A stretch of 64,000 nucleotides of DNA, from positions 9,725-73,724 of the forward strand of contig JAGLOJ010000012.1 in assembly GCA_023139045.1 (NCBI GenBank), read 5' to 3'. Both the position numbers and the translations under genes were made by a program. This DNA is from Candidatus Sabulitectum sp. (GTDB lineage: Bacteria > Fermentibacterota > Fermentibacteria > Fermentibacterales > JCC-6). The notes under the pieces were generated by a model. That model was not told where the DNA came from, ran no database searches, and saw only the letters and a list, made by a program, of their open reading frames with translations. This document shows positions 12,145-30,424 of this stretch, piece after piece (the first letter of the stretch is position 1; each line of letters begins with the position of its first letter).

Positions 12145-12145
12145 T

Positions 12146-13510: not shown

Positions 13511-13623
13511 ATAAGAATCCCGGCTCTTGTGTGTAAACACTTTAAACTGAGGGGCTTTGAAGGGCTGTTTAACGACTGTAGAACCTGCCTGGCATCCTTT
13601 TTTGGCGGGAGAAAGAACTGAAT

Positions 13624-14931
13624 ATGACCGTAAATTCTGTTTGTAATGTGAACAGGTACCTGGCACCTCTGCTTCCCCGGGCAATTCCCGTAATCTTTGC
13701 TGTGGTTCTTCTTCCCCGGATACTTCTATTCTTTTATCTTGGTGGAGAACTTCCGCAACCGGTGAGAGATCAGGCTTTGTACATTCATACAGCTGGCCAG
13801 ATCGCTACCGGTGAAGGTTTTTCATTCTCTGAGGATCTGGGGCTGATGAAGAATCTCAGGAATACAGATGATAGTCTTCAGCAGCATTGGACCGGAAGTG
13901 CAGGCTACATGTTCGGTCTTGCTCCTGTGGATACCCCGACTGCTGTGATGGAACCGGGTTATCCCGTGCTGCTTGCGTTGTTTTTCTCCCTGTTCGGTGC
14001 GGTAAGTGGATCGGTGTTTTCTCTCAACCTTCTTTTTGCTCTCGGGGGTGCTTTTGCTGTTAGAAAACTGGTCATGGATGTATGGGGAGCAGAGTCAGGT
14101 CTGATGGCAGCTGTTCTCTGGTCTCTGTATCCGCCTTATGTGTACTACACCGCCTATGCAATGACAGAAACTGCTCATTTTGCCCTGCTGATCATATCTT
14201 CCATGCTGGTTCTTTCCGCCGGCAGAGGAACCGGGAAGGGATTTACAGCCGGACTGACCACAGGTGTTTTCTTCCTGATTCGGGCCACCGCTTTGTTTCT
14301 TATTCCACTTCAACTTGCTTACCTCGCCTGGAGAAAGCAATGGAAAGCTCTGCTTTTTCTTTCTGCGGGATTTCTTGTTGCGGTGTCTCCCTGGGTTGTG
14401 CGAAACTGGATATCACTGGGCGAACCGGTGCTGATGCCAACAAAGGGGGCACTCAACATGTGGATGAGAAACAATCCTGAAGTACTTGCATTGGAGGGCA
14501 TCTTTGTACCCGCTGATATTCCAGTGAATAATCTTTCCATGCTGGAGTACCCATCCACCGATTCCATTCAGGGAGAGCTTGCAAGAAGCAGGGCACTGGG
14601 AATTTCAGCCAGAACCTATATCCTGAGTAATCCCCGGCTCATGGCCTGGCTTGCCTGGAATCGGGCAATCGCCTTTCTGGCTCCGGGAGGCAGCACCCTG
14701 GGTGCCCGGGGAATGCTTGCCGGTCTTCTCATTTATCCATTAATACTGTTCGGAGTGGTCGGTTTGTGGCGTAATCGATCTCATCCGGAAGCAGCATTCC
14801 TCTTTGCTCTCTTTGTTTTGTATCTTCTGGTTCACGCTATGGCGCACGGAGGGGTTCGGTATCGGTTGCCGGTAGATGCTGTATTTATCATCGGGGTTGC
14901 GCTGGGAACTTGCTGCAGGAAGGGGAAATAG
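13624..14931 (+). CDS. GT-C fold glycosyltransferase, family 39/83 (PMT/ArnT-like, polyprenyl-phosphate-sugar dependent)
   Basis: 435 aa, about 11 TM helices, with the N-terminal loop and YPPxxYY-type motifs of ArnT/PMT-family enzymes. Confidence 0.75.
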   Translation: MTVNSVCNVNRYLAPLLPRAIPVIFAVVLLPRILLFFYLGGELPQPVRDQALYIHTAGQIATGEGFSFSEDLGLMKNLRNTDDSLQQHWTGSAGYMFGLAPVDTPTAVMEPGYPVLLALFFSLFGAVSGSVFSLNLLFALGGAFAVRKLVMDVWGAESGLMAAVLWSLYPPYVYYTAYAMTETAHFALLIISSMLVLSAGRGTGKGFTAGLTTGVFFLIRATALFLIPLQLAYLAWRKQWKALLFLSAGFLVAVSPWVVRNWISLGEPVLMPTKGALNMWMRNNPEVLALEGIFVPADIPVNNLSMLEYPSTDSIQGELARSRALGISARTYILSNPRLMAWLAWNRAIAFLAPGGSTLGARGMLAGLLIYPLILFGVVGLWRNRSHPEAAFLFALFVLYLLVHAMAHGGVRYRLPVDAVFIIGVALGTCCRKGK

Positions 14932-16304
14932 TGAACAGGCTGAAACGAATTCTTTTCGTTTTTCCAGAGACCAGGTATCCGTCGGGGCAGCCGCCTCTGG
15001 GGATAGCCATGCTCTCTGCAGTAGCTTCACTGTGTGGTGCAGAGACTGTTCTCTGCGACATGTCCTTCCAGAAAAAGCCATTTGAGCATCTGAGTCATTT
15101 GCTGAAGGAATTCAAGCCGGACGCTGTTTCCATTACTGTGGTTACTCCCCAGATCAGAGCGACTCTTACTGCCTGCGAGGTTATCCGGGAACATGCTCCC
15201 GAGGCATACCTTATGATCGGTGGCCCGCATGCCACGGTGCTTCCGATAGAGACTCTTGAAACTTCAGGTGCAGATCTTGTTTATTCCGGAGAGGGCGAGA
15301 TAGCATTCAAACTGCTTGTTGAGGGAACAGACCCCGGGGAGATTCCCGGTGCCTGTTTTATGAAAGACGGGAAGGCGATTCTTGTTCCCGGCAAGTTGCT
15401 GGTGGAAAACCTGGATACTCTTCCTATGCCGGACAGAGACATTTTTGATATGAAAAAGTACTTCAGTACTTGGTATTCCATGGACAGAGTAGATCCCGGC
15501 TTGAAAGGCACCACGATTATGGGTACTCGTGGATGCCCTTACACCTGCACCTTCTGCCAGCCGACCCTCTCTGAGATATTTGGCAAAAAGACCCGCAAGC
15601 GTTCTCCGGAATCAGTAGTGAAGGAACTGAAACACCTTGTGGAGAAGTTTTCCATCAACGGTTTCATGTTTGAAGATTCCACCTTCATTGTTGACCATAA
15701 GTGGGTTACCGATATCTGTTCACTGATGAACAGCGAGGGTTTGAAGCTCAAGTGGTGCTGTAATGTCAGGGCCGATCTTCTTACGGAAGAGCTTCTTGAC
15801 ACCATGGCAGGTGCCGGTCTTTCCAAGGTAAATATGGGGGTTGAATCTGCCTCACAGAGAGTTCTCGACGACATATACAGAAAGGGAATCACAGTGGAGG
15901 GCGTAAGAAGAGCTCTCCGGATGTGCCTCTCCCGGGGAATTTTCGTTCAGGGTTACTTTATGCTCGGTGCGCCGGGAGAAACTGTTGAGGAAATGAAGCA
16001 GACAATTGACTTTGCCGCAAGAGAACCATTTGATGATGCTCTTTTCGATATTACCACACCATTCCCTCACACAGAGCTCTGGGAGATGTCAAAGGAATTA
16101 ATAAATGAAGATTACTCTGAATTCGATTGTTTCCACAAGAGTGTATACACTTTTGACGGAATTACTTCTGAGCAGATAGAAAAATTGAAGAGAAATGCCT
16201 TCTGGAAATTTTATGCCCACCCGGCCAGAATACTGAGGACAGTGCGCACGGTTCTGGGGCCCAGGAACTTTAAGCGAACCATGCTGAAGGTGAGGAGAGT
16301 ATGA
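14910..16304 (+). CDS. B12-binding domain radical SAM enzyme (HpnJ-like class B rSAM)
   Basis: N-terminal Rossmann-like B12-binding region (ILFVFPE..., EAYLMIGGPHAT) followed by GTRGCPYTCTFC (CxxxCxxC). Alternative start GTG 14932 sits right after the upstream stop with an AAGGGG RBS. Confidence 0.85.
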   Translation: MLQEGEIVNRLKRILFVFPETRYPSGQPPLGIAMLSAVASLCGAETVLCDMSFQKKPFEHLSHLLKEFKPDAVSITVVTPQIRATLTACEVIREHAPEAYLMIGGPHATVLPIETLETSGADLVYSGEGEIAFKLLVEGTDPGEIPGACFMKDGKAILVPGKLLVENLDTLPMPDRDIFDMKKYFSTWYSMDRVDPGLKGTTIMGTRGCPYTCTFCQPTLSEIFGKKTRKRSPESVVKELKHLVEKFSINGFMFEDSTFIVDHKWVTDICSLMNSEGLKLKWCCNVRADLLTEELLDTMAGAGLSKVNMGVESASQRVLDDIYRKGITVEGVRRALRMCLSRGIFVQGYFMLGAPGETVEEMKQTIDFAAREPFDDALFDITTPFPHTELWEMSKELINEDYSEFDCFHKSVYTFDGITSEQIEKLKRNAFWKFYAHPARILRTVRTVLGPRNFKRTMLKVRRV

Positions 16305-17032
16305 GAGAAATTACCGTTACAATTGATGATGGAGGTATGCACCCCGCGGTAAATGCTGCAATTCAGAAGTGTATTGATTCAGAGAATGTGAACAGAGTAA
16401 GCATAATGGCAACCGGCAGCAATTTTGCAGAAGCCAGTATGATGGCCATGATGAACGGTGTTCGTGTTGCAGCACATCTGGATTGCTGTCAGGGACCCTT
16501 TCTGTTGAAAGGGAGCGATTTTCCTGAGTCGTTTTCAGTCTGGCTTAAATCTGCAGATTCACTGGCGGATTCTGTTCAGAAAGAATGGTCGGCTCAGATA
16601 GAGATGATCCTCTCCACCGGAGGAGTTGTTACTGCCCTGGACAGTCATCGCCATCTGCACAACCTGCCGGCCTTGCAGAAAGTTATTATTTCTGTTGCAA
16701 AAGAATACGGTATAAGAACAGTAAGATCCGCAGTACTGCCGGACAAGCTTATGAGATTTCCTGCAGGACTCAAGTTGAACTCTCTGGGTTGTGAATTAAA
16801 GACCAACCTTGAGTCTGAAGGACTTGTAACAACTGATAGAATGCTGGGGTTCGGCCGGGCCGGGAAGATCAATCGGAAATATTTAAGCAAGTTCACTTCT
16901 CTGTGCAGCGATGGTACAACTGAAATTGTGATGCACCCTGCCACCGAAAATGTCTGGTCTTCTGGTCAACCTGGAGAGCTTGAGTTGATCACCTCTGAAT
17001 GGTTCGGTGACTGGTGCAGAGGAAAACGCTAG
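16301..17032 (+). CDS. YdjC-family carbohydrate deacetylase (ChbG/HpnK-like)
   Basis: ITVTIDDGGMHPAVNAAI N-terminus; the LDSHRHLHNLP motif matches the YdjC HLDSHxHxH signature. 4-nt overlap with the rSAM gene. Confidence 0.8.
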   Translation: MREITVTIDDGGMHPAVNAAIQKCIDSENVNRVSIMATGSNFAEASMMAMMNGVRVAAHLDCCQGPFLLKGSDFPESFSVWLKSADSLADSVQKEWSAQIEMILSTGGVVTALDSHRHLHNLPALQKVIISVAKEYGIRTVRSAVLPDKLMRFPAGLKLNSLGCELKTNLESEGLVTTDRMLGFGRAGKINRKYLSKFTSLCSDGTTEIVMHPATENVWSSGQPGELELITSEWFGDWCRGKR

Positions 17033-18357
17033 AGTTATACGTTATCCTGCTGGCTCTGCTGGCAAGGCTTACCGTTTTTTTTCTTGCTGCCGGAGGTTTT
17101 TTCCTGGTGGGCGAGGGGCAGGTTCAGGCGAACATTGCTGAGAACATTCTTTCCGGCAGAGGATTCATGCTTTCAGAATCCATGTTCCACGACCCTGATC
17201 CCAGACGCGACTCAAGCCTTGAGTTTTTCAGGGAAACCGGTGGACTCTACGGAGTATTGATTCCAGAGCAGCCAAGTACCTTTTTTGTTCCAGGCTACCC
17301 TCTTTTCCAGGCCTTCATTTTTATGGTTACTTCTCCGGGAAACCTTCTTGCGGTTATCGGCGTTCAGCTTGCTCTGGGGCTACTTACGGTTTTTCTTGGA
17401 ATGCGTCTTGCTTTCCGATTTCTCTCCGGGCGGTGGTATATCGCTGCAGGAATATTTATGGCTCTTGATCCATTTGAGCTCTATTACCAGGCAATTCCAG
17501 CAACGCAGGCACTTTTCTCACTGCTGTTCATCGCAGGATTGCTTCTATCTTTACGCTTTCTTGAGAAACCGGATCTGCCCAGGGGCGTCTGGGCGGGTCT
17601 TCTGTGGGGAGTTGCATTTCTTGTCCGACCGGTTGCGCTTCCAATGATTGTATGGCTTGCCGTTTCAGCCCTCATTGCATGGAAATTCTCTAAAAAAATA
17701 ATACCGGCTCTTCTGCTTATGGTGGTTGTTTTTGGAGCCATTTTAATGCCGTGGGTGGTTCGAAACAGAAACACAATGGGCCGTTACCAGCTTCTTCCGT
17801 TACAGGGAGGAGCCCAGATGTGGGAATTCAATGGAAGAATATTTACCGATCTATTTCTGAATGACACAGAGGGTGCAAAGCTGCTTTACGAACCGGTGCG
17901 CAATACATGGTTGTCCCGTTTGAACAATGCCGAGCTTGCTGAATTTCCAGAATTTACCACGGAATCAGAATTTGAGAGGGATAGTGTTCTATACCACCGT
18001 CAGAGTAAGTTCATTAAATCAAATCCCGGTGTTTTTCTACACCTTTCCGCATGCAGATTCGTTGAGTTTATTAAGCCGTTTCCGCTGAACCGGTTTTCAC
18101 CTGTGCATACTCTGGTTGGACTGGTCTCCTTTTTCTGGGTTGGTATTTTCTTTTTCGGTGGTGCGCTTCTCATGCTGCGCAGGGGGTGGTCCGGTGTGTT
18201 TGTGGCTGGTGTGATTGCTGGATATATACTTATGCATCTGCTCACAGCCTCTGGAACACCTCACAGAGTTGCTCTTGATATTCCCCTGGTTATAGCATCG
18301 CTGATTGCAGTGAAGCATTCCTCTGAAAGATTCAGAGCCGGAAAAATATCTTCATGA
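17014..18357 (+). CDS. GT-C fold glycosyltransferase, family 39 (PMT/ArnT-like), second copy
   Basis: 447 aa polytopic membrane protein with the same fold signature as 13624-14931. Confidence 0.75.
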   Translation: MQRKTLELYVILLALLARLTVFFLAAGGFFLVGEGQVQANIAENILSGRGFMLSESMFHDPDPRRDSSLEFFRETGGLYGVLIPEQPSTFFVPGYPLFQAFIFMVTSPGNLLAVIGVQLALGLLTVFLGMRLAFRFLSGRWYIAAGIFMALDPFELYYQAIPATQALFSLLFIAGLLLSLRFLEKPDLPRGVWAGLLWGVAFLVRPVALPMIVWLAVSALIAWKFSKKIIPALLLMVVVFGAILMPWVVRNRNTMGRYQLLPLQGGAQMWEFNGRIFTDLFLNDTEGAKLLYEPVRNTWLSRLNNAELAEFPEFTTESEFERDSVLYHRQSKFIKSNPGVFLHLSACRFVEFIKPFPLNRFSPVHTLVGLVSFFWVGIFFFGGALLMLRRGWSGVFVAGVIAGYILMHLLTASGTPHRVALDIPLVIASLIAVKHSSERFRAGKISS

Positions 18358-19298
18358 AAATCCTGGTGGTCAAGACGCATGCCTTCGGAGACTCACTTCT
18401 TGCCACGCCTGCTGTGGCTGGTCTGATTGCAGCCGGGGACAGGGTCACAGTTCTTACAGGGCCTTCTTCGCTGCCGGTGTGGAAGCGCATGTCTGGAATT
18501 GAGGGGCTTGTTCAGTCACCTGCGCCCTGCTCCGCAGCTAAACTTCTGTGGTGGTCGCTCTTGAACATGCAGAGAGGTTTTGACAGAGTTATTCATCTTG
18601 GTTCTTCGGCAGGAGCTTTTCGGTGGCTTGGGTTTCTCACGGGAAAGAAGGCACTCAGCGGAGGTGATCGGAAAATCGGTTTTGGCATAGTCAGACCTGC
18701 TGCTCGGGATTATTGCAGAATCGCCGGGGTTCAGTGTTCATCCCTGAAACCGATCTTTCCCGTTGCTCGATCCGAATTTGATGCAGCCCGGCGACATACC
18801 GGCAGTGAACCTTATGTAGTACTTGCCCCCGGAGGAGCCAGGAATGTGCGGGATTTTGTGCCGTTGAAACGATGGCCCATGTCCCGGTGGGCAGAGGTGT
18901 CTCTTTACCTTCAGGCAGAGGGTTGCAGAGTGTTTCTGGTGGGTGGGGAACAGGACAAAGAGGAGATATCTTCTGTGACCGGGATCAATCTGGCTGGAAG
19001 ACTCTCCTGGGGTGAAACTGCTGCACTTGTTTCCGGAGCATCTCTGTTTTCAGGAAATGACAGCGGCCCCGCTCACCTTGCAGTTGCGGGGGATACTCCG
19101 GCACTTGTTCTATTCGGTCCGACAGATCCCGACTCCCTCTATGAGAAAGGCAGTATTGTTCCTGTTTGTGGAACTGTGTCATGTTCACCATGCTATGCAA
19201 ACAGTGTCTTTCCCGGTTGTACCGGAGACGAAGACTGTATGATTTCAATCGACACTGAAAGGGTGATTCATGCCCTTGAGGAGATGCTTCAAAGATGA
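18354..19298 (+). CDS. glycosyltransferase family 9 (heptosyltransferase-like, WaaC/WaaF fold)
   Basis: MKILVVKTHAFGDSLLATPAV N-terminus and GNDSGPAHLAVAGDTPALVLFGPTDP C-terminal motif are typical GT9. Confidence 0.8.
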   Translation: MKILVVKTHAFGDSLLATPAVAGLIAAGDRVTVLTGPSSLPVWKRMSGIEGLVQSPAPCSAAKLLWWSLLNMQRGFDRVIHLGSSAGAFRWLGFLTGKKALSGGDRKIGFGIVRPAARDYCRIAGVQCSSLKPIFPVARSEFDAARRHTGSEPYVVLAPGGARNVRDFVPLKRWPMSRWAEVSLYLQAEGCRVFLVGGEQDKEEISSVTGINLAGRLSWGETAALVSGASLFSGNDSGPAHLAVAGDTPALVLFGPTDPDSLYEKGSIVPVCGTVSCSPCYANSVFPGCTGDEDCMISIDTERVIHALEEMLQR

Positions 19299-20746
19299 AA
19301 ATAACAGCTCTTAACCCGCCTTTCATTCCTCATTTCAGTCGTGGGCAACGAAGTCCTGCAGTGACAAGAAGTGGAACGCTTTACTTTCCCATCTGGCTCT
19401 CCTATGCAGTGGGAGCTCTTGAGCAGGCTGGGCATACCGTTCAATTCATAGATTCTCCGGCAATGGATCTTGATCTTGCTGAAGTCCGCGAGAAGATCAG
19501 AGAATTCTCACCGGATATAATAGTGCTGGATACATCGACACCTTCGATTCTTTCTGATACTGAGACTGCAGATACGTTAACTGATACTGGAGCAGCAGTG
19601 TTTATTCTTGGTTCTCATCCATCTGCACTTCCAGAAGAGACTGTGTTGCTTGGACGGAAATTCCGTGGAGCGATTCTGGGTGAGTACGAAAAACCTCTCC
19701 TTTCAGTTGTGAATGCCCTTCAGGACGATCTTCCTCTGGAGGGGATACCTGGAACTGCAATTCGTCGCAGGGACGGAGCAGGCGTCGTGGTCACACCTCC
19801 TCAGGGGTATCTCACGGATCTGGATTCTCTTCCATTTGTCAGTTCTGTTTATGCTGCGCATCTTCCAGTTGCCAGGTACAACAATCCCAATGCACTCCAT
19901 CCCCAGGTAATGGTAATGGGTGGAAGGGGCTGCCCGAATCAGTGCAGTTTCTGTGTCTTTCCTCAGACCCTTACCGGTCGCCATTACAGAAGCCGTTCGG
20001 TTCAGAATGTTGTTGCTGAAATGAAGTGGGTAGAGGATAACATGCCGGAGGTGCAGGCGGTCTTTTTTGAAGATGACACAATTGCTGCGGATATGGAAAG
20101 GCTGCGACTGCTTTCCGCTGAAATTATTAAAGCGGAAGTAAAAATTTCCTGGACGTGTAATATGAGGGCCACAGCAGATTTCCAAACTCTTTGCCAATGT
20201 CATGCTGCAGGTCTTAGATCGGTTTGTGTGGGCTTTGAAAGCGGATGTGATGAGATACTGGACTCGATGCGAAAAGGTCTCAAGGTGGAGCAGATGGTGC
20301 GATTCATGGAAAGTGCCAGGAAGGCCGGCATTCTTGTTCACGGCTGCTTTCTCTTCGGAATTCCCGGGGAAACCCGGGATACTGCCAGGCGGACTCTGGA
20401 TTTTGCATTGAAACTGAACCCGGACACAGCCCAGTTTTACCCTCTGATGGTTTATCCGGGAACCGATGCATACACAGATGTTCAGAAAGCCGGGCTGCTG
20501 GTTACATCAAGCTGGAGAGACTGGTTGAAGGCAGACGGTACTCATGCCTGTGTTGTTCAGACACCTGACATGTCTCCAGACGAACTTGTTGAATTCTGCA
20601 ATCATGCCAGAAGGAAATTCTACCTGAGACCGGGATACATCATGAAAAAAGTATGGCGCAGTCTTTTTGATAAAGGCGAAAGACACAGAACTCTGCTTGC
20701 ATTCCGAACATTCCGGAAATACATTTTCAGGCGGAAAAATGACTGA
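19295..20746 (+). CDS. B12-binding domain radical SAM enzyme (second HpnJ-like paralog)
   Basis: B12-binding N-domain followed by GGRGCPNQCSFC (CxxxCxxC). Co-linear with the 14910 gene. Confidence 0.85.
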   Translation: MKITALNPPFIPHFSRGQRSPAVTRSGTLYFPIWLSYAVGALEQAGHTVQFIDSPAMDLDLAEVREKIREFSPDIIVLDTSTPSILSDTETADTLTDTGAAVFILGSHPSALPEETVLLGRKFRGAILGEYEKPLLSVVNALQDDLPLEGIPGTAIRRRDGAGVVVTPPQGYLTDLDSLPFVSSVYAAHLPVARYNNPNALHPQVMVMGGRGCPNQCSFCVFPQTLTGRHYRSRSVQNVVAEMKWVEDNMPEVQAVFFEDDTIAADMERLRLLSAEIIKAEVKISWTCNMRATADFQTLCQCHAAGLRSVCVGFESGCDEILDSMRKGLKVEQMVRFMESARKAGILVHGCFLFGIPGETRDTARRTLDFALKLNPDTAQFYPLMVYPGTDAYTDVQKAGLLVTSSWRDWLKADGTHACVVQTPDMSPDELVEFCNHARRKFYLRPGYIMKKVWRSLFDKGERHRTLLAFRTFRKYIFRRKND

Positions 20747-21686
20747 AGTCGCAGTAGTTATCCCCTTCAGAGGCCAGTGGGACACAGTAATTCCAACTCT
20801 AAGGGCATTGGTCACGCAGACAATCAGGTCTCGCATGACCGTGGTTTTGAGTGTCGACGGCATGGAAAAGCCACCTTCTGAGGTTGCTGAACTGGCAGAT
20901 GTCTGTGTTAACGGACGACAGGGAGGCCCTGCTTCTGCCAGGAACCGTGGCTGGCGAGCAGTCAGTACACCCTTTATTCTGTTCACCGATTCCGACTGTA
21001 TTCCTGAAACTACCTGGGCTCTGCGTATGGTTGATAAACTGGAGGGTGAATATCAGGCGGTGAAAGGGATATATTCTTCAGGCGGGAGCAAGCTGATACA
21101 AAGGCTGGCTCAAGTGGAGTTTGAAGAGAGATACCGGCTTATGGAACGGGCTGAAACTATTCATCTTGCTGATACTTATTCTGCAGGTTTCCGCAGAGAC
21201 TGGCTTGAGAAGCTTGACGGTTTTGATGAGAGTTTTCCTCTGCCGGAGCATGAGGATGTGGATCTTTCCTGGAGACTCACCGGAGCGGGGGGAAGGATCG
21301 GATTTGTCCATGATGCCAGGGTGGCCCATATTCACAGATCGAGCTGGACTGCCTATTTTGCAATGAAGTATCGCCGTGGAAAATGGAGGGTAATGCTGGT
21401 CAGAAAATTCCCAGCCAGGGCCGTGAGCGACGGTTATACTCCTCAGACCCTGAAACTGCAGATGCTGCTCTCTGTTCCGGTTGTGTTTTCCCTGTTTCTG
21501 CTTCCATTTTTTCCTGGTGTCACCGTTTTTTTCTGGCTCCTTTTTCTGCTTCTCTGTGCTCCTCTTCTACTTACTGCCATGGCATCTGATCCTTTCACTC
21601 TGCTGTTTGTTCCGTTTTTTGCACTGTGGAGGGGTACTGCCCTGTTTGCGGGTGCCCTGCGGGGTTTGACGGGAGGGAGCAAGTAG
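20739..21686 (+). CDS. glycosyltransferase family 2 with C-terminal membrane anchor (HpnI-like)
   Basis: VVIPFRG...TDSDCIP (DxD-type) GT-A fold followed by 3-4 C-terminal TM helices. Start MTEV overlaps the rSAM stop by 8 nt. Confidence 0.75.
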   Translation: MTEVAVVIPFRGQWDTVIPTLRALVTQTIRSRMTVVLSVDGMEKPPSEVAELADVCVNGRQGGPASARNRGWRAVSTPFILFTDSDCIPETTWALRMVDKLEGEYQAVKGIYSSGGSKLIQRLAQVEFEERYRLMERAETIHLADTYSAGFRRDWLEKLDGFDESFPLPEHEDVDLSWRLTGAGGRIGFVHDARVAHIHRSSWTAYFAMKYRRGKWRVMLVRKFPARAVSDGYTPQTLKLQMLLSVPVVFSLFLLPFFPGVTVFFWLLFLLLCAPLLLTAMASDPFTLLFVPFFALWRGTALFAGALRGLTGGSK

Positions 21687-23074: not shown

Positions 23075-23094
23075 TAACTGTTCTTGCTCTTTCA

Positions 23095-23820
23095 GTGCTG
23101 GTTGGCGTCTGGAATTTTGCCGGTCCTGTTCAGGCAGGGCTCGGTGTTTTCCCGGTTGCCTGGAGCAACGATCCTGTCTCCTGTATGGCCGCTCCGGCAG
23201 GTATGGGCAGGATTGAGTTTCTTGAGGTGGTTGCCACGGCCGGAATTACCGATAATGAACCATCTGGATCTGTTGCAGCAGTTATGCCTCTGGGAGGATC
23301 TGGATTTCAGCTTGGTACAGCTGCTGGATGGGACAATAATCACAGCACAGGTACAGCTCAACTCTCGGCAGGCTATGTGATTGCCGGAGATCCTATCGGG
23401 TTTATGGAAGGTCTCTTCGGACCCAGCATAACAACCGGTGTTTCGGCCAGGTATCTGTATGCTGACAGTACCGGTGACAACTCTTTTGATTTTGATGCCG
23501 GGTTTCAGTTTTCCCTTTTTCCCTCATTTGCACTGGGAATGCTTTATTCGGATATCATCAATGATCGCGTACTCACCACAGGGTTCAGTCATGTTTTTAA
23601 CAGGAACTTGAAGGCTCACACAACCTTCAGTGATGATAACTGGCAGGTTGGATGCGAGCTGATGGTTAAAAGAACCTTCCGGGTTTACGCCGGCACAGAT
23701 GGCGAGAATGTTAACGCCGGTGTCAGGTTCTCCCCCGGACAATGGAATTACGCTTACGGAGCTGTGCTGCACAATAACGGTATTGAGCACAGAATCGGCA
23801 TCTCCAGGAGGTTCCCGTGA
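23095..23820 (+). CDS. hypothetical secreted/outer-membrane protein
   Basis: Hydrophobic N-terminus, and the frame is open upstream to the previous stop. Gly/aromatic-rich, beta-rich. N-terminus uncertain: GTG 23095, or a non-canonical start overlapping the upstream stop. Confidence 0.5.
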   Translation: MLVGVWNFAGPVQAGLGVFPVAWSNDPVSCMAAPAGMGRIEFLEVVATAGITDNEPSGSVAAVMPLGGSGFQLGTAAGWDNNHSTGTAQLSAGYVIAGDPIGFMEGLFGPSITTGVSARYLYADSTGDNSFDFDAGFQFSLFPSFALGMLYSDIINDRVLTTGFSHVFNRNLKAHTTFSDDNWQVGCELMVKRTFRVYAGTDGENVNAGVRFSPGQWNYAYGAVLHNNGIEHRIGISRRFP

Positions 23821-24992
23821 CAGCACTGTTTCTTGCTCTGGCACTTTTAGGACAGACCGATTCCAGGGAAACCGGGGAAGACGGTCTTAATCTTGGATTG
23901 CTTTTTCACTCCACAGCATCAGCAGATCTGAAAGCGGGACTGAATACTCTCTCGGCTGATACTCTCACTGTTTTTCCACGGGGATCTTTTAACAGCGACT
24001 GGGTTCGTCTCTGCGCAGAAGCTGCTCTCAAGTATTCTGTGGATTCAACATTCTCCGAACTGGAACCTGTAAGCGCAGGTGCATTTTTCAGATGGCCGGG
24101 CTCACCGTGGATTGGAACTGGAGTTTCCATGGGCCTTATTGACCCTTTTCTTGCAGGACTTGATGTTCCGGCAAGAGAGTGGCAAAGCTATGATGTGATG
24201 GATTCCACCGTAGTCACAGTTGAAGCGGGAGGTTTGCTCGGGTTTCAGGGATTCTGGAATCAGTTTGGAGATTCGCTCTCATGGTATGGAGTAAAATCGC
24301 CCTGGCTGGGATTCGGAACACTGAACTGGAACGGCATTCGAGAGAATTCTTCCGAGCTGGAAACAGTCGGCGGTTTTCTTGATCTGAGAAAATTCCAGCC
24401 ATGGTTCCTCTTTGTTAAGGAAGACTCGCAGTGGACTTGCCTGACAGAGATCAGGGGCTGGCAACCGGTGCATAACCATGATTTTTCCATTGAAATTGCC
24501 CCCAGGGTCTACTTCGAGGAGGATTCCAATACTGTTGGCCTTACAGCCTATCTTCACGGAAAAAGCAGAGCCATCAGTGGCTCTTTGCAGGCTGTTACAG
24601 ATGTGGCTGATCCAGCGGAGCCGTCTCTACACGCAGGATTGGATATCCTTTCCGAAGTCGGTATCGCCTGGGCTGTGGATGCTGAACTTGAACATTTCAA
24701 GGATTTCCATGGTGCAGTATCAGGATTTTACAGAATGTCGCCTGCCGGATGCGGCGGAGCACTCGAGATGTTTGATGACAGCCTCAGAGTTACCGCAACG
24801 GCACTGTACTCACCTGTTCCCGGTGTTGCAGCAGAACTGTCAGTAATGTCAGATCTGAATACAGGTTCACCGGAACCCGGATGCCTGCTTCGCGTATTCG
24901 GGGCCAGGGATGACTTTACCGCCGCGGTCACTGTTGAATGGGGAGACGGTTCAACCACTCTGGGGATGGAGGTATCTGCATGGATAGACTGA
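23817..24992 (+). CDS. hypothetical secreted protein (beta-rich, W/G-rich)
   Basis: AGGAGG RBS 6 nt upstream of GTG 23817. Signal peptide MTALFLALALLGQ. Confidence 0.55.
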   Translation: MTALFLALALLGQTDSRETGEDGLNLGLLFHSTASADLKAGLNTLSADTLTVFPRGSFNSDWVRLCAEAALKYSVDSTFSELEPVSAGAFFRWPGSPWIGTGVSMGLIDPFLAGLDVPAREWQSYDVMDSTVVTVEAGGLLGFQGFWNQFGDSLSWYGVKSPWLGFGTLNWNGIRENSSELETVGGFLDLRKFQPWFLFVKEDSQWTCLTEIRGWQPVHNHDFSIEIAPRVYFEEDSNTVGLTAYLHGKSRAISGSLQAVTDVADPAEPSLHAGLDILSEVGIAWAVDAELEHFKDFHGAVSGFYRMSPAGCGGALEMFDDSLRVTATALYSPVPGVAAELSVMSDLNTGSPEPGCLLRVFGARDDFTAAVTVEWGDGSTTLGMEVSAWID

Positions 24993-25348
24993 TTGCATTA
25001 TCTTTACTGCTCGTTTTCTTTTCCCTTTCCTGTGCAGTTTTTGTACCGGCAGAGAAAGCGCATACTGATCAACTGGTGTTTCACAACCCCGCAGCGGGTA
25101 AAGTTCAGCTAATCGGAGACTGGAACAACTGGGGGGGTATAACCGGTGCCACCGGTACGGTGAACCCTGCATGCGGGATTATGGAAAATGACAATGGCAT
25201 CTGGACTGCTCCACCTCCGGATGATCTGGAGCGGGGAAGGTACAGGTATGCTTTTCTTGTGAATGGAGCACAGTATTTTCCGGATCCCGCGAATCCGGAA
25301 CGGACCGTGTTTTTAGAACATGAGGTTTCGGTTCTTCTTATTGACTGA
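24980..25348 (+). CDS. small lipoprotein with CBM48/E-set (AMPK-beta glycogen-binding-like) domain
   Basis: Signal with lipobox FFSLSCAV. KVQLIGDWNNW...RYRYAFLVNGAQYFPDPANP matches the glycogen-binding/isoamylase N-domain pattern. Confidence 0.6.
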   Translation: MDRLIALSLLLVFFSLSCAVFVPAEKAHTDQLVFHNPAAGKVQLIGDWNNWGGITGATGTVNPACGIMENDNGIWTAPPPDDLERGRYRYAFLVNGAQYFPDPANPERTVFLEHEVSVLLID

Positions 25349-25365
25349 GACGAGGGGGGAATAGA

Positions 25366-26415
25366 TTGGCTTCTGTAAGATTTGAAGCTGTCAGCAAGGT
25401 TTACAACACGGATTCAAAAGCACTTTCAGATTTTTCACTGGAGGTTGAAGACGGAGAGTTTGTTGTTCTTGTCGGACCCAGCGGTTGTGGTAAATCAACC
25501 ACTCTTCGAGTGATGGCCGGTCTTGAGGAGGCAACTGCCGGCAGAGTTTTCATCGACAACACTGACATAACCGACGAAACACCGTCAAAGCGAGATATCG
25601 CAATGGTGTTTCAGAACTATGCTCTGTACCCGCACATGACTGTTTTTGACAACATGGCCTTTTCTCTGAAAATGCGCAAGCTGCCCAAAGAGGAAATAAA
25701 GCGTTCTGTTACTGAAACTGCCGACATTCTCGGAATTTCCGAATATCTCGATAGGAAGCCCAAAGAGCTTTCCGGTGGTCAGAGGCAGCGCGTGGCTCTC
25801 GGACGGGCTATTGTCCGTCAACCCAAAGTTTTCCTTTTTGATGAGCCTCTTTCAAATCTCGACGCGAAGCTAAGAGTTCAGATGAGAAATGAGTTGGCCA
25901 GGCTTCATTCACAGCTTAAAGCCACAATGATTTATGTCACACATGACCAGGCGGAAGCAATGACTCTGGGCGACAGAATTGTTGTGCTTAAAGACGGCTG
26001 TATTCAGCAGGTGGATCATCCTCTAGAAGTCTATAACAATCCCTGCAACAGGTTTGTAGCCGGCTTTATTGGAAGCCCTGCCATGAATTTTTTCAAGGCT
26101 GAGATATCAAAGGGGGAGCTTTTGTCGGTAAATGGTCGACTTGAGATAAACGGAGTCGCTGACGGGATGTATACACTGGGTGTCAGACCGGAGGATATTA
26201 TTGTTTCTGAAAGGGGGCAGTTCACCTGTTCGATCGATGTTGTAGAGACACTTGGCAATGAAAAGGTTGTAATCGGAATCACCCGGAGTGGTGAGCAGAT
26301 CACTGCCAGGTGCAGGCCTGATGCTGATATTCACCCCGGAGATGACTTGAGTTTCGACATTGATATGAGTAAAACCCATCTTTTTGCTGTAGAAGGGGTT
26401 GAGCGTAAAATATGA
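25366..26415 (+). CDS. ABC transporter ATP-binding protein, MalK/UgpC/MsmX-type with C-terminal TOBE domain
   Basis: Walker A GPSGCGKST, Q-loop, signature LSGGQRQRVALGRAI, Walker B FLFDEPLSNLD, C-terminal regulatory beta-domain. No permease is adjacent. Confidence 0.85.
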   Translation: MASVRFEAVSKVYNTDSKALSDFSLEVEDGEFVVLVGPSGCGKSTTLRVMAGLEEATAGRVFIDNTDITDETPSKRDIAMVFQNYALYPHMTVFDNMAFSLKMRKLPKEEIKRSVTETADILGISEYLDRKPKELSGGQRQRVALGRAIVRQPKVFLFDEPLSNLDAKLRVQMRNELARLHSQLKATMIYVTHDQAEAMTLGDRIVVLKDGCIQQVDHPLEVYNNPCNRFVAGFIGSPAMNFFKAEISKGELLSVNGRLEINGVADGMYTLGVRPEDIIVSERGQFTCSIDVVETLGNEKVVIGITRSGEQITARCRPDADIHPGDDLSFDIDMSKTHLFAVEGVERKI

Positions 26416-27476
26416 TTCTGCTCACCTCACTGGTAATTGCTCTTCTGGTTTCCTTCTTATTGACTCCCCTGATGAGTCGCCTGGCTGGGAAATGGGGCTT
26501 TGTTGACAGCAAAGACAAACCGGGAAGCTCGGGAACGCCGTTCATGGGGGGCGTTGCCATTTTTCTGGGTTTCGCTGCTGCCATTGTGGCAGGAATGCTG
26601 TTTTTTCCGGTTCTTCCCGGTGAAAGTATCGTTGATACCCCTCTCTCCTGGCGATCCATCTGTATTCTTGTGCTGGTTTCCGGCTTTCTTATGGCACTCA
26701 CCGGATTTCTTGATGACAAGTATGAACTTTCACCGCGGATGAAGCTTTTTCTTCATTCCCTTGTGGCCATCGTTGTTGGTACCTTGTTCGTTGTGAATGG
26801 AGCCCAGGTGAGGCTTTTCCTCGAAGGAAGCCATGTTGCATGGCTGGCTGCACCTGTTACTTTGATCTGGCTTCTCGGCATAACCAATTCCATTAACCTT
26901 CTTGATCATGCAGACGGGGTTACAGCAGGCGTATCAGCAATATCCGCATTGTTCTTCGCAGCGTTGAATTTCATGCACGGCAATCCAGCCATTGCATTTA
27001 TCAGTATTGCTCTGGCAGGTGCGTCGCTGGGATTCCTGTTCTTCAATTTTCCACCGGCTTCAACCTTTATGGGTGATTGCGGTTCCAATTTCCTTGGCTT
27101 TATGCTGGGCATCATAGCTGTCCTCGGGTTTTACACACCTCGGGGGTCAATTCCTTATCTGGCCATACTCTCTCCGCTTCTTATCCTGGCTGTACCCATT
27201 ATTGACACCGTAATGGTTCTTATTTACAGAAGAAAGCGTGGAGCCCCCCTTTTTAAGGGAGACAAGAATCATCTGGCTCACAGACTCATGCGCATGGGGT
27301 ACTCAAGGAAAACCACAGTCGTGATGTTATATATTTTTTCTGTAATACTTGGAACAATGGCACTTCTTCTTCCCACTCTGCAGCCTTACCAGGCGATTCT
27401 TGCATTTGTCAATGCGATAGGAGTGATCAGCGTATTGACAATATTCATTGCTCGCAGCGAGAGAGGTAACCGTTGA
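26412..27476 (+). CDS. MraY/WecA-family polyprenyl-phosphate N-acetylhexosamine-1-phosphate transferase (GT4 family)
   Basis: 10-11 TM helices; conserved NxxNxxDGxDGL-type and GDxGSNFLGF motifs. Confidence 0.85.
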   Translation: MILLTSLVIALLVSFLLTPLMSRLAGKWGFVDSKDKPGSSGTPFMGGVAIFLGFAAAIVAGMLFFPVLPGESIVDTPLSWRSICILVLVSGFLMALTGFLDDKYELSPRMKLFLHSLVAIVVGTLFVVNGAQVRLFLEGSHVAWLAAPVTLIWLLGITNSINLLDHADGVTAGVSAISALFFAALNFMHGNPAIAFISIALAGASLGFLFFNFPPASTFMGDCGSNFLGFMLGIIAVLGFYTPRGSIPYLAILSPLLILAVPIIDTVMVLIYRRKRGAPLFKGDKNHLAHRLMRMGYSRKTTVVMLYIFSVILGTMALLLPTLQPYQAILAFVNAIGVISVLTIFIARSERGNR

Positions 27477-30349
27477 TGAGAACAAAGGTTTCTACAGCAT
27501 TCTTGGTTTTGCTGACAGTTGTAATGGTTGGTGTTTTATTTGGAGTGATTACCAACAGCAGAAACAGCATTCTTGTTAAAGAGATGTTCTATGTGGCAGG
27601 GGGAAGTCTTGCTTCAATGATGGCTGCTGTACTTCTTTTTCTGGGGAAGCCGTGCTATAAGCAACGAATCCCTGTACTATCCCTCGGTGCTGTTGGTGCC
27701 GTACTGCTTCTTATGGTGATAATGCATTTTGCTGGAATCGGTTCAATTAATGGGCCATTTACCTTTCTTATGCTTCTCTCTCTTGCAAGCCTGACGGTTT
27801 CGTCAATCTTGTTCATTGATGAAGCTCACGTTAAACTTTTTACTTCGATCATGTTGGGATCTACTTCCATTATGTTCGTTTACGCCATAATGCAGTGGCA
27901 GGGAATCAATATTTTTTCCTGGGACGCTTCTCTTACCAGAAGCGGCAGAAGCACGGGAAGCCTTGGAAATCCCAACCTTCTCGGTGGATTTGCATCAGCG
28001 ATTATTCCTCTCGGCGCAGCATACCTTTTCTCATTGAAGAAGTTTTCCCCGGTTCTTAAAACCAGTATGACTCTTTTGTTTGTTGCCCTGGCCACAACCT
28101 CTGTTGTTGCAAGTGGAACCAGAGGAAGCGTGATTGGTGTTGTTGCGGGCAGTGTGGTTCTTCTTCTCTGGTTTTTTAAAAACAGTTCAAAATCTTTCAG
28201 GAAACTCATTCCTTTTGTCCTTCTTCTTCTGGTGGTTATTGCGGCTGTCGCTGTTCCAATGGCTTCCAGGCTTTCTGAACTGGATCCAACGATTGGGGAT
28301 CAGGGAACCCTTCAGGTCAGGAAGATCATCTGGTCCGGAACCTTTAATCTTTTCATTGATAGTCCACTGCTCGGGCACGGCCCGGGATCATTTCAGATTC
28401 TTTTTCCGGAATACAGGAACCCGTTCTACAGCATTCTGGGCGTGAGTCACAACACCCTTCACGCTCACTGTGAGTATCTTGAGATTCTTGTGGATATTGG
28501 AATAATCGGGCTTATTCTATGGGCTGTGGCAGCCTGGGGGATTATCGGTCAGCTGAGAAAAGCTGATCTCTTCAGAGCTGGCGCCTTTGCTGGAATGGCC
28601 GCAATGCTTGCAGAGGGGCTTGTTTCCATTCACCTCAGATGGCCGCCTACAGCCTGGTTGTTTGCAACCATGGCAATGATTTTTCTTTCCAGAGAATGTA
28701 ACCCTGTTCCATCAGGCAGGAAGAGCAGATCAGCTGCTGTTGGTCTGGCTCTTGTAAGTCTAATTCTTGCAGCAGGCTTTTTTGTGCACTATCTCCCGAT
28801 TACCAGATCATCCGAGCTGGTATTCAAAGGCAAGGACATGTTCCTGGTCAGAACCGAAATGGCAATGAACGGTGCATATTCCGCAGCAGCCCAGTGGATG
28901 AACTCCGGGGATGAAGCAGCTCTTAATTCTGCAGTTGTTCAGTGGCAGAATGCATCGATTTTTGCTGACAGTGCGGTTGCATATTCCAGAGAGGCCACAG
29001 AGGTATATACTTACGATCTGGGGGGATGGTACGCTTTGGGCAGTGCCCATCTGACACGGTACATGGTAATGGCCCCACCGGTTCCGGCCATGCGCTCTGC
29101 TCTTGAGGCAGCAGGATTACCCAGTCCGTTTACTCCGCAGGAAATCAGGGATGAACTGCTTCTGGGAATGGCGGCTTACGACAGCCTCACAACCATGGCT
29201 CCGAACTATGCAGAGGTTCACAACAACCTTGCACTCGGTTATTCCAATCTCGGAATGCTGGATGAGTCTATGGAGGAATTGTATAAATCTTATAAAATTC
29301 ACGCTCACAGGCGAGGGGATTACTACGATCAGGTTTCTGCACTGCTCGCCATTCATCCCAGTTCCTTCTATGGTGTTGTTCTCTATTTTCATCACTCACT
29401 TATGGGCTATGATACTGGAGTTACCGGGGGAAAACGTGAGATGGTCTGCGATTTGATCGTGAATAATGCCTGGTTTCTTGTTTCCTGCCAGCCGACCAAC
29501 AAAGCAGCTCTGCAGGAAAAATTCATCGCTCTGCTGGAAGAGATTATGCCCGCTGAACACAGTGATCCGCTCATTGACAGAGTAAGAAATATCGAGGGAT
29601 TTTCTCCCTTTGCCCTCTGGGACAGCAAAGCTGTGTTACTTATGAGTGATGAAGATGCCATTCGGGAACTTCGGCAGATGTCGATATTCTCTGCTTTCAA
29701 CAGCAGTACTTTCCCAGCGGCATTACCTTCAGTCAGAGACTTCTACATTTATCCTGCTGTAATCCTCTTCCGTTCCGGATGGGATCAGGCTGTTTTTGAT
29801 TCGGTCATGGATATTTTCCTTCTTCAGATAGTGACTGACCGGAATCTTGATAATGTAAACACACTTTTACAGAGTGAGCGATTTCATGAATCAGTTGAAG
29901 TGGAAGTTGCAGAGCAGGTATGGGTGGTAAGAATGGCTCTCGGAGGCACCAGAACCGCCTTGAGGGAAGGTTTTGAGACTCCCTGGCTTGCAGGTAGTCT
30001 TCCGGGGCTTATCTCAGACACTCTCCACTCACGGATGGAAAATGATTCATTGAACAGCCAATTGTATCAGATGGAACTGAGGATGAGTTTTCTTCTGGTT
30101 ACCTCTTACTGGTGGGACTACAATATTTTTGCGGCTTCCCAGAACGAGTACCTTCTTACTCGTATTTTTCATTGCAGAGACATGATACGTGAAATTCAGC
30201 CGGTAGCCTGGCCTTCAATTGTATCAAGGATTCTTGCAGAGGAAATAGACAGGATCAGTAATCAAACCGGCGGCGTTTGCCCATTCGTGGTGGGTCTTCT
30301 AAGAGATGATCTGGTGAGTGGTGCGGCAAGGGTTACAGAAGGCCCTTGA
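27473..30349 (+). CDS. 958-aa membrane protein: O-antigen ligase/Wzy_C-domain polymerase or oligosaccharyltransferase fused to a large TPR-like C-terminal domain
   Basis: About 12 TM helices containing the Wzy_C signature (GSLGNPNLLGGF..., LLGHGPGSFQILFPEYRNPFY...HNTLHAHCEYLEIL), then about 500 aa of soluble helical repeats. Confidence 0.8.
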   Translation: MMRTKVSTAFLVLLTVVMVGVLFGVITNSRNSILVKEMFYVAGGSLASMMAAVLLFLGKPCYKQRIPVLSLGAVGAVLLLMVIMHFAGIGSINGPFTFLMLLSLASLTVSSILFIDEAHVKLFTSIMLGSTSIMFVYAIMQWQGINIFSWDASLTRSGRSTGSLGNPNLLGGFASAIIPLGAAYLFSLKKFSPVLKTSMTLLFVALATTSVVASGTRGSVIGVVAGSVVLLLWFFKNSSKSFRKLIPFVLLLLVVIAAVAVPMASRLSELDPTIGDQGTLQVRKIIWSGTFNLFIDSPLLGHGPGSFQILFPEYRNPFYSILGVSHNTLHAHCEYLEILVDIGIIGLILWAVAAWGIIGQLRKADLFRAGAFAGMAAMLAEGLVSIHLRWPPTAWLFATMAMIFLSRECNPVPSGRKSRSAAVGLALVSLILAAGFFVHYLPITRSSELVFKGKDMFLVRTEMAMNGAYSAAAQWMNSGDEAALNSAVVQWQNASIFADSAVAYSREATEVYTYDLGGWYALGSAHLTRYMVMAPPVPAMRSALEAAGLPSPFTPQEIRDELLLGMAAYDSLTTMAPNYAEVHNNLALGYSNLGMLDESMEELYKSYKIHAHRRGDYYDQVSALLAIHPSSFYGVVLYFHHSLMGYDTGVTGGKREMVCDLIVNNAWFLVSCQPTNKAALQEKFIALLEEIMPAEHSDPLIDRVRNIEGFSPFALWDSKAVLLMSDEDAIRELRQMSIFSAFNSSTFPAALPSVRDFYIYPAVILFRSGWDQAVFDSVMDIFLLQIVTDRNLDNVNTLLQSERFHESVEVEVAEQVWVVRMALGGTRTALREGFETPWLAGSLPGLISDTLHSRMENDSLNSQLYQMELRMSFLLVTSYWWDYNIFAASQNEYLLTRIFHCRDMIREIQPVAWPSIVSRILAEEIDRISNQTGGVCPFVVGLLRDDLVSGAARVTEGP

Positions 30350-30400
30350 TGTAGTATGAATTTTACCATAGATTAGCTGTACTTGTGCTTTGTCTGGCAT

Positions 30401-30424
30401 GGGCGCGTTGCGCCCATTTTTGCT
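30401..30424 (+). terminator. rho-independent terminator closing the glycosylation operon
   Basis: GGGCGC-GTT-GCGCCC, a 6-bp all-GC stem, immediately followed by ATTTTTGC. Confidence 0.55.

Follow-up and report, generated by a model that had tools for sequence, protein, structure and literature searches.

We describe here a 14-gene operon (g01–g14) in a 64-kb stretch of DNA (the window) from Candidatus Sabulitectum sp., a member of the uncultured bacterial phylum Fermentibacterota. Our favoured reading, to which we give somewhat better than even chances, is that of a Fermentibacterota-specific operon that makes, tailors and surface-anchors an envelope glycan of the O-polysaccharide/lipopolysaccharide (LPS) type on a polyprenyl-phosphate carrier. 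The real peculiarity of the locus is the combination of multiple B12-dependent radical S-adenosylmethionine (SAM) tailoring enzymes with lineage-specific outer-membrane barrels. The sequence is identical to part of a public 93.8-kb contig of a Candidatus Sabulitectum metagenome-assembled genome (MAG; NCBI GCA_030634765.1; also assembled from SRR13892605), and independent gene calls on that contig coincide with 14 forward-strand open reading frames spanning 13624 to 30349, as an earlier note on this DNA had proposed. That note named 11 of the 14 genes; the three that it missed, g02 and g06 (B12-binding radical SAM) and g03 (YdjC family), are the most distinctive ones.

The predicted operon is tightly packed and conserved across the phylum. 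With the most plausible starts, neighbouring genes overlap by 1 nt (g01/g02, g07/g08), 4 nt (g02/g03, g04/g05, g05/g06, g09/g10, g12/g13), 8 nt (g06/g07), 13 nt (g10/g11), 19 nt (g03/g04) and 1–4 nt (g13/g14). The earlier description of all junctions as abutting or overlapping by 1–20 nt holds for these (1–19 nt), but not for g08/g09 and g11/g12, which are separated by gaps of 20 and 17 nt; no unassigned coding space is left within the block. All 14 genes occur in unchanged order in seven further loci (L004, L086, L087, L088, L089, L091 and L093), i.e. on all Fermentibacterota contigs of sufficient length for the whole block, with protein identities of 29–87% and the lowest values (29–37%) for g09, g10 and g14; g02 is missing from the deeper-branching locus L003. 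On sequence grounds, this shared order is the strongest evidence for a single unit, and it shows that the arrangement did not arise by chance. Downstream, the 115-nt gap before rimP contains a stem-loop (30399-30417) with a T-run, the strongest terminator-like site in the region 12000-31500 (8 pairs, 6 of them GC) and the terminator noted earlier near 30401-30424; as the total of such sites in this region (21) matches the shuffle expectation (20.6), the hairpin alone is only suggestive. Upstream, the candidate promoter (9 of 12 consensus matches) is weak, because promoter-like sites are not enriched over shuffles. The unit probably does not begin at 13624, as had been assumed, but further upstream, at a decayed radical SAM gene (12888-13618).

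Searches against Pfam and NCBIfam confirmed the GT9 and GT2 glycosyltransferases (GT), the WbaP-type phosphoglycosyl transferase (PGT), the WecA/MraY-type polyprenyl-phosphate N-acetylhexosamine-1-phosphate transferase, the Wzy_C protein and the MalK-like ATPase that had been named before (Table 1), g08 also scoring above the cutoff of TIGR03025 ('EPS polyprenyl glycosylphosphotransferase'; 376.5 versus 295.55 bits). The lipid-linked glycan pathway proposed in the note is well in line with the two initiating transferases, the GT-C-like membrane enzymes and the Wzy_C protein. On the gene families, operon structure, synteny and barrel folds we base a proposal for substrates, step order, radical SAM chemistry and acceptor. 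In it, g13 (WecA-type) and/or g08 (WbaP/WcaJ-type) would prime undecaprenyl phosphate (Und-P) at the cytoplasmic face; sugars, at least one of them an N-acetylhexosamine (HexNAc), would be added by g07 (GT21-like GT2) and g05 (GT9), and the N-acetyl group would be taken off by g03 (YdjC). The radical SAM enzymes g06 and g02, ancestrally joined by a third, would then modify unactivated carbons of the lipid-linked sugar, either by HpnJ-type ring contraction to a carbocyclic aminocyclitol or by MoeK5/GenK-type C-methylation. The product would cross the inner membrane via a Wzm/Wzt-type exporter, which is encoded adjacently in deeper-branching relatives and would have to lie elsewhere in this genome; g01 and g04 (ArnT-like GT-C) would add residues from polyprenyl-phosphate-sugar donors at the periplasmic face, and g14 (Wzy_C, with a helical/TPR-like periplasmic tail) would ligate or polymerise the product onto an acceptor, most likely lipid A-core. 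Finally, g09, g10 and g11 would form a dedicated outer-membrane module handling the amphipathic product.

Table 1. Features of the window, with positions, strand and the matches or context on which the assignments are based
Feature	Position	Strand	Length (aa)	Assignment	Match or context
g01	13624-14931	+	435	Polytopic membrane protein, GT-C-like (ArnT/PMT_2 type)	PF13231, 28.4 bits (cutoff 26.1)
g02	14931-16304	+	457	B12-binding radical SAM enzyme, subfamily A	PF02310 + PF04055
g03	16301-17032	+	243	YdjC-family carbohydrate de-N-acetylase, HpnK/NaxD-like	PF04794, 118.9 bits
g04	17014-18357	+	447	Second GT-C-like (PMT_2) membrane protein	PF13231, 32.5 bits (cutoff 26.1)
g05	18354-19298	+	314	GT9-family glycosyltransferase (heptosyltransferase-like)	PF01075, 90.6 bits
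g06	19295-20746	+	483	B12-binding radical SAM enzyme, HpnJ sister family	PF02310 + PF04055
g07	20739-21686	+	315	Membrane-anchored GT2, GT21-like subgroup	PF00535, PF13641, PF13632, PF13506
g08	21686-23074	+	462	Large polyprenyl-phosphate hexose-1-phosphate transferase (WbaP/WcaJ type)	PF02397, 214 bits; PF13727
g09	23095-23820	+	241	Small 14-stranded outer-membrane barrel (modelled), FadL/PorV/TodX fold, N-terminal helical plug segment	
g10	23817-24992	+	391	Large outer-membrane beta-barrel (modelled), ~18-22 strands, no specific family	
g11	24980-25348	+	122	Small probable lipoprotein, CBM48/E-set-like glycan-binding domain	PF02922, 21.3 bits (cutoff 22.4)
g12	25366-26415	+	349	MalK/UgpC-type ABC ATPase with TOBE domains	PF00005 + OB_MalK + TOBE
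g13	26412-27476	+	354	WecA/MraY-superfamily polyprenyl-phosphate HexNAc-1-phosphate transferase	PF00953, 125 bits
g14	27476-30349	+	957	Wzy_C (O-antigen ligase/polymerase family) membrane protein	PF04932, 81 bits, aa 203-351
Radical SAM pseudogene	12888-13618	+		Decayed third B12-binding radical SAM gene, immediately 5' of g01	Frameshifts, in-frame stops, internal deletions
Candidate promoter	12824-12852	+		TTGACC-17-GATTAT	Consensus scan; between divergent SH3-domain gene and pseudogene
Terminator-like hairpin	30399-30424	+		ATGGGCGC-GTT-GCGCCCAT, then TTTTT	Upstream of rimP-nusA-infB; sequence read directly
FG-GAP repeat protein	3379-5181	+	600	Por_Secre_tail (C-terminal sorting domain of the type IX secretion system, T9SS)	Weak Pfam match
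ABC-2 transporter	8997-12144	+		One ATPase + two ABC2_membrane_3 permeases	Between Rce1-like and SH3-domain genes
Small radical SAM protein	43426-44247	+	273	Radical SAM	
ApbE	42521-43438	+		Flavin transferase	
Serpin	51281-52546	-		Full-length serpin	PF00079, 396 bits

The O-polysaccharide/LPS assignment draws mainly on gene neighbourhoods in relatives. In the deeper-branching L003 and L092 the order is der-plsY-wzm-wzt-g01, with wzm encoding an ABC2_membrane protein and wzt an ABC_tran plus Wzt_C protein (L003:3534-5546; L092:2173-4161), and the contig of L004 begins inside wzt (L004:1-1023), directly upstream of g01. Wzm/Wzt with a Wzt_C domain is a hallmark of ABC-transporter-dependent O-polysaccharide export (PMC11127046). 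In addition, a Nitrospirae locus (GCA_016195565.1, L083:302-12438) holds the g06/g07 pair in one co-directional block, whose first part encodes an LpxL-like acyltransferase (Lip_A_acyltrans), a 407-aa Wzy_C protein, a methyltransferase, a B12 radical SAM enzyme and a GT9, and whose remainder encodes a weak NodB-like protein, a DUF362 Fe-S protein, the g06 orthologue, a GT2 and a molybdopterin oxidoreductase. Given wzm-wzt (Wzt_C) in the relatives and the LpxL-like/Wzy_C/GT9 context in Nitrospirae, LPS-type lipid glycosylation fits, as an O-polysaccharide/LPS variant; this is the lipid half of the 'protein or lipid glycosylation' that the note had suggested. We also count in its favour the g06-g07-g08 trio of a Planctomycetia locus and the glycan cluster around the Lawsonia orthologue of g06 (both described below), the two known pathways in which YdjC enzymes (NaxD and HpnK) deacetylate a lipid-linked HexNAc, and the modelled outer-membrane barrels g09 and g10. 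An outer membrane is expected in this phylum, members of which have been predicted to be diderm with LPS (PMC5030696), and the Por_Secre_tail domain of the FG-GAP protein suggests that the organism would have a T9SS, hence an outer membrane.

Known ABC-dependent O-polysaccharide systems (E. coli O9a, Klebsiella, Citrobacter youngae O1/O2) comprise Wzm/Wzt, a carbohydrate-binding module on Wzt, WecA initiation, WaaL ligation and optional GT-C periplasmic additions, the latter as a periplasmic three-component GT2/flippase/GT-C modification (PMC11127046). The operon resembles them in its WecA-type initiator, cytoplasmic glycosyltransferases, GT-C-like enzymes and Wzy_C ligase candidate, with wzt (Wzt_C) upstream in three relatives and wzm in both of those for which sequence is available. 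It differs in that the window has neither wzm/wzt nor a small flippase, that no WbdD-like coiled-coil terminator is encoded, and that the operon adds a WbaP-type initiator, two to three B12 radical SAM enzymes, YdjC, two dedicated outer-membrane barrels and a CBM48-like lipoprotein. The view that this is no ordinary O-antigen locus is therefore right in so far as Wzx and Wzz are missing and ancestrally three B12 radical SAM genes, YdjC and two barrels are present, but what remains is still an O-polysaccharide/LPS variant.

A secreted exopolysaccharide or capsule, with g08 starting the repeat unit, g14 acting as a Wzy-type polymerase and g10 (with g09 and g11) as the export channel, would agree with the TIGR03025 match of g08 and with the glycan-binding type of the lipoprotein g11. 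We nevertheless consider it very unlikely, since no member of the Wzx, Wzc/Wzz (polysaccharide co-polymerase) or Wza (outer-membrane polysaccharide export) families was found among the 14 proteins, so that the PGT g08 stands without these partners of a Wzx/Wzy-dependent pathway, and since the GT9 and the wzm-wzt (Wzt_C) context better match an O-polysaccharide.

Several points weigh against the O-polysaccharide/LPS assignment. The window contains no wzm/wzt, Wzx, GtrA/ArnEF-type flippase, Wzz or lpx/kdo genes, so neither export nor the acceptor is anchored locally. Two initiating transferases exceed the needs of one simple pathway. Both g05 (69.8 bits with the heptosyltransferase II model) and g13 (~10 transmembrane (TM) helices; 106.5 bits with the WecA equivalog, cutoff 326) score under the equivalog cutoffs, so that these matches do not define a sugar specificity; a PDB sequence search with g05 returned generic GT9/WaaF/WaaC matches (E 1e-8 to 1e-10). 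The GT-C assignment of g01 and g04 depends on marginal PMT_2 scores, and the Wzy_C domain of g14, read as sequence, cannot separate a ligase (WaaL) from a polymerase or an O-oligosaccharyltransferase (PglL). Finally, g12 has no role in the model although it is held at the same operon position in all relatives (64–81% identity). It scores above the cutoff of NF008653 UgpC (462.9 versus 432 bits), no permease partner is encoded in the cluster, and it may serve several sugar importers as a common ATPase or have a function specific to this pathway.

The membrane proteins g01 and g04 are paralogues (27% identical) with 8–9 or more helices each, at least eight of them hydrophobic in g01, where R48-D49-Q50..Y53 after TM1 is invariant in 8 orthologues. 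The start of g04 is probably 17014, as no other start supplies the first TM helix. Being polytopic, above the PMT_2 gathering cutoff and, for g01, endowed with a conserved acidic residue (RDQ..Y), the two have the predicted traits of ArnT-like GT-C enzymes. PF13231 is the sole family matched, however, and neither the PMT model (PF02366) nor its accompanying domains gave a match, so that the label 'GT39' under which both had been listed was ruled out. Likewise, the 'Wzy_C-TPR fusion' proved to be a Wzy_C protein with a single sub-threshold TPR_17 unit (~aa 565-612; 15.8–16.6 bits, cutoff 24.4), which recurs below threshold in 5 of 6 orthologues. Overall, g14 has ~12 TM helices and a 520-aa C-terminal extension with one or two TPR-like repeats. 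In a full-library search with the 518-aa tail, aa 445-640 were found at the same position in ~20 clusters of proteins of 950–1030 aa, and aa 640-958 are lineage-specific; the TPR-like unit resembles one repeat of many multi-repeat proteins. PDB sequence searches with g01, g04 and g14 gave nothing useful, and those with g07 chance-level matches.

These proteins are also the starting point for protein O-glycosylation, in which g14, as a PglL/PilO-type O-oligosaccharyltransferase, would move an Und-PP-linked oligosaccharide to periplasmic or surface proteins bound by its TPR-like tail, and g01 and g04 would be PMT-like protein glycosyltransferases. Wzy_C is common to PglL/PilO enzymes and WaaL, the long extension of g14 carries a unit of a protein-interaction fold, g01 and g04 match PMT_2, there are two initiating transferases, and the FadL/PorV-like g09 recalls PorV, the handler of T9SS cargo that becomes glycolipid-anchored. 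We still hold this reading to be quite improbable: the TPR signal is a single sub-threshold repeat, PF02366 and its accompanying domains are unmatched and the ArnT-type PMT_2 scores marginal, the operon contains no gene for a candidate acceptor protein, relatives have wzm-wzt with Wzt_C immediately before the block, and GT9 together with the Nitrospirae LpxL/Wzy_C context points to LPS. For the protein half of the earlier suggestion we thus found nothing specific, neither a PMT (GT39) match nor an acceptor-protein signal.

The radical SAM enzymes deserve closer attention. Both g02 and g06 contain a B12-binding domain and a radical SAM core with the CxxxCxxC motif, and the g06 family has C213, C217 and C220 without exception. 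The HpnJ model (TIGR03471) is matched end to end by g06 with 341.2 bits, below the curated cutoff of 577.6; its next-best family is BchE (135 bits), and it shares 32% identity with a Burkholderia protein annotated as HpnJ (E 2e-80). HpnJ is also the best NCBIfam match of g02, at 178.8 bits and thus far under the cutoff, and g02 is 26–30% identical to every other radical SAM protein compared. By sequence comparison, g06 is HpnJ's nearest relative. Its orthologues (42–51% identity) come from Riflebacteria, Nitrospirae, Planctomycetia, a proteobacterial MAG, Desulfovibrio/Solidesulfovibrio and plasmid 1 of Lawsonia intracellularis; as they are closer to one another than to HpnJ (32–37%), they make up a distinct sister family, which occurs in non-hopanoid glycan loci of at least five other lineages. 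Bona fide HpnJ, by comparison, has been reported solely from genomes with SHC and HpnH (PMC12324291). Fom3 and MoeK5, both C-methylases, are among the nearest neighbours of HpnJ in sequence networks (PMC9204698), and ring contraction can therefore not be assumed for g06.

A third B12-binding radical SAM gene has decayed in the present genome. Its remnant takes up the 730 bp that separate the divergent SH3 gene from g01 and consists of six collinear fragments in three frames with stops (48–78% identity in tblastn with the intact 495-aa orthologue of L093); two internal deletions have removed sequence, and most of the B12 domain is gone. In L088, L089, L091 and L093 the gene is intact (~490–546 aa, counted from the longest possible start) and overlaps the start of g01, in L087 the contig ends within it and in L002 a stop splits it. 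The three radical SAM proteins of the operon show 26–30% mutual identity. Since the third is intact in relatives, the ancestral Sabulitectum-type operon had 15 genes, with three different B12 radical SAM enzymes, and the sequences suggest that some members of the Sabulitectum lineage are in the course of losing one tailoring step. In Sabulitectum-type genomes this third gene holds the position that wzm-wzt take in the deeper-branching relatives.

Outside Fermentibacterota, the sole neighbour that travels with g06 is the following g07-type GT2; the pair, in this order, is kept in L005–L008, L010, L011 and L083/L084, and the Planctomycetia MAG (L006) keeps the trio g06-g07-g08. The Nitrospirae block adjoins a nitrogenase-like gene cluster. 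On the 27-kb Lawsonia intracellularis plasmid 1 (L099, NC_008012.1) the g06 orthologue (42.5% identity, 9001-10464) is clustered with a GT2, GalE, SIS, a GHMP kinase, a HAD hydrolase, a second radical SAM enzyme and five SAM methyltransferases. The set of GT2, GalE, SIS, GHMP kinase, HAD and methyltransferase genes is typical of heptose-containing glycans. In Solidesulfovibrio alcoholivorans (L011:2866-5557) an ABC ATPase and a Peripla_BP_2 (BtuF-type) protein are encoded a few kb upstream of the block of GT2, radical SAM and GT2 genes; these may represent cobalamin uptake linked to the B12-dependent enzyme. In a Chitinophagaceae MAG (L081) a g02-like B12 radical SAM gene (3189-4565) is found ~2.5 kb away from a Wzt homologue (1-657; 40% identity to the Wzt of Fermentibacterota), which again hints at a link between B12 radical SAM enzymes and ABC-dependent polysaccharide loci. 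A literature search combining radical SAM, cobalamin or C-methyl with O-antigen had no O-antigen paper among its top matches, which is not proof that there is none.

The operon also appears to carry its own outer-membrane module, made up of the barrels g09 and g10 and the lipoprotein g11. Neither barrel has a Pfam domain, and both families are confined to Fermentibacterota. Both model as outer-membrane barrels, and at the structural level g09 is predicted to share the 14-stranded barrel and N-terminal hatch of the FadL/TodX/PorV family. Unlike those proteins (345–444 residues) it has only 241 residues and hence minimal extracellular loops; it further differs in lacking a sequence-level family match and in being encoded in a glycan operon rather than in a locus for fatty-acid/hydrocarbon uptake or T9SS. 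The earlier designation of g11 as a CBM48 lipoprotein needs qualification, as the CBM48 match is just sub-threshold; the signal peptide, the lipobox Cys and the motif GDWNxWGG...GRYRYAFLVNG...DPxNP are nevertheless conserved in 8 orthologues.

Besides g06, two further proteins recall the hopanoid enzymes HpnI, HpnK and HpnJ. Over its full length g03 passes the gathering cutoff of PF04794 (29.7 bits), a family that includes HpnK, NaxD and ChbG; its best curated match is HpnK (TIGR03473), at 92.7 bits against a cutoff of 232.6, and it is 26% identical to Burkholderia HpnK (E 3e-23). The GT2 g07 has the motifs DSD84, EDVD171-175 and RRGKW211-215 and a hydrophobic C-terminal tail, and together with its orthologues it is above the threshold of Glyco_transf_21, which is also the best Pfam match of HpnI. 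As a direct HpnI orthologue it was ruled out (pairwise E 0.08), the likeness being left at the subgroup level. According to a genetically supported scheme, HpnI adds N-acetylglucosamine (GlcNAc), HpnK deacetylates this GlcNAc on bacteriohopanetetrol (GlcNAc-BHT; PMC13459092), and HpnJ, as proposed, then yields a cyclitol ether by ring contraction (PMC13459092, PMC9204698). At the remote-homologue level, g03, g06 and g07 are thus an HpnIJK look-alike in which every curated Hpn threshold is failed. The likeness lies in the set of GT21-like GT2, YdjC deacetylase and B12 radical SAM enzyme and in the order radical SAM-GT2, which is that of hpnJ-hpnI on a Burkholderia plasmid locus (L100), where hpnK is nearby and shc and hpnH are not among the features of the fetched region. 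The context is different, being polyprenyl-linked glycan assembly here instead of shc/hpnH; no hopanoid-pathway family has been reported among the annotated genes of the window, whose annotation is partial. Nor was YdjC found near the g06/g07 pair outside Fermentibacterota in L082 and L083, the Nitrospirae locus having the weak NodB-like candidate (15.9 bits).

From this likeness one may derive a free membrane glycolipid with an aminocyclitol head group, in which the HpnI/HpnK/HpnJ steps would be applied to a lipid alcohol other than a hopanoid: g07 would put GlcNAc on the lipid hydroxyl, g03 would deacetylate it, g06 would contract the ring to an ether-linked cyclitol and the FadL-like g09 would insert the lipid laterally into the outer membrane, with the other genes serving for decoration. 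FadL-family barrels move hydrophobic molecules laterally, and the modelled fold of g09 matches theirs. The full-length relationship of g06 to HpnJ, the curated HpnK match of g03, the Glyco_transf_21 match of g07 and the hpnJ-hpnI-like order all speak for it, as does the genetic documentation of the scheme itself (PMC13459092). Against it, the three proteins score under the curated cutoffs, g07 shows no significant similarity to HpnI, true HpnJ is confined to genomes with SHC and HpnH (PMC12324291), the proximity of Fom3 and MoeK5 to HpnJ (PMC9204698) forbids taking ring contraction for granted, and two Und-P priming enzymes, Wzy_C, GT9 and the wzm-wzt of relatives are left unexplained, wherefore we give this glycolipid little credence.

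A further comparison concerns Francisella FlmF2/FlmK and Bordetella LgmA/C/B, which we take to be lipid A hexosamine modification systems. Francisella FlmF2/NaxD/FlmK, like the operon, combines a GT2, a YdjC deacetylase whose substrate is a lipid-linked HexNAc, and an ArnT-like GT-C; NaxD deacetylates Und-P-N-acetylgalactosamine, letting the ArnT-like enzyme add galactosamine to lipid A (PMC11279074). Unlike the operon, these systems are without radical SAM enzymes, PGTs and Wzy_C, and g07 is of the D,D,D,RxxKW GT21-like and not of the ArnC/GtrB type.

The genes flanking the cluster are housekeeping genes or unrelated to it. Upstream are aroA-aroC-chorismate mutase, the FG-GAP protein, an Rce1-like protease, the ABC-2 transporter and the divergent SH3-domain gene; downstream are rimP-nusA-infB-truB-ribF-pnp. 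The ABC-2 transporter was ruled out as the exporter of the pathway, as it is missing at that position in relatives and not of the Wzm/Wzt type: it is non-syntenic in the five relatives with sequence upstream of the cluster (L002, L003, L088, L091 and L092), and since the Rce1-like and SH3-domain genes are adjacent in L002 and L091, with no ABC-2 transporter between them, it looks like an insertion that is specific to this lineage and has no connection with the cluster. The G/C content of the cluster (0.47–0.51) is inside the range of the whole window. A tRNA scan and an Rfam scan gave no match across the window, which therefore has no cobalamin riboswitch or other RNA element by this measure. 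Elsewhere, an ApbE gene overlaps a small radical SAM gene, both unrelated to the cluster, and a full-length serpin is encoded on the reverse strand; serpins are relatively uncommon in bacteria.

Fermentibacterota are abundant uncultured fermenters of anaerobic digesters and marine sediments, and we know of no report on their surface chemistry; the operon, present throughout the phylum and strongly conserved, is a candidate for the source of their main envelope glycan. Our comparison also sets apart a family of B12 radical SAM enzymes that spans several phyla, is closest to HpnJ and is encoded in glycan instead of hopanoid loci. To our knowledge, HpnJ chemistry has never been reconstituted, and a relative that is soluble, unconnected with hopanoids and active on a simple lipid-linked aminosugar would offer a more tractable test of radical ring contraction or C-methylation of sugars; Lawsonia, a pig pathogen, offers a cultivable and medically relevant host for studying the g06 family. 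Should the enzymes be ordinary C-methylases, the locus would be an interesting but incremental variant of O-polysaccharide biosynthesis. The g06-type enzymes could also reveal new hydrolysis-resistant sugar caps in LPS. One specific version, rather unlikely in our estimate, is that the g06 family and the GT21-like GT2, here together with YdjC, turn the terminal glucosamine of a polyprenyl-linked envelope glycan into an ether-linked carbocyclic aminocyclitol cap. If this were true, the cap would be resistant to glycosidases and acid and could serve as the terminal signal read by Wzt_C in the relatives, and carba-sugar-capped LPS/O-polysaccharides would be widespread in anaerobes, namely in Fermentibacterota, Nitrospirota, Riflebacteria, Planctomycetota and Desulfovibrionaceae including Lawsonia.

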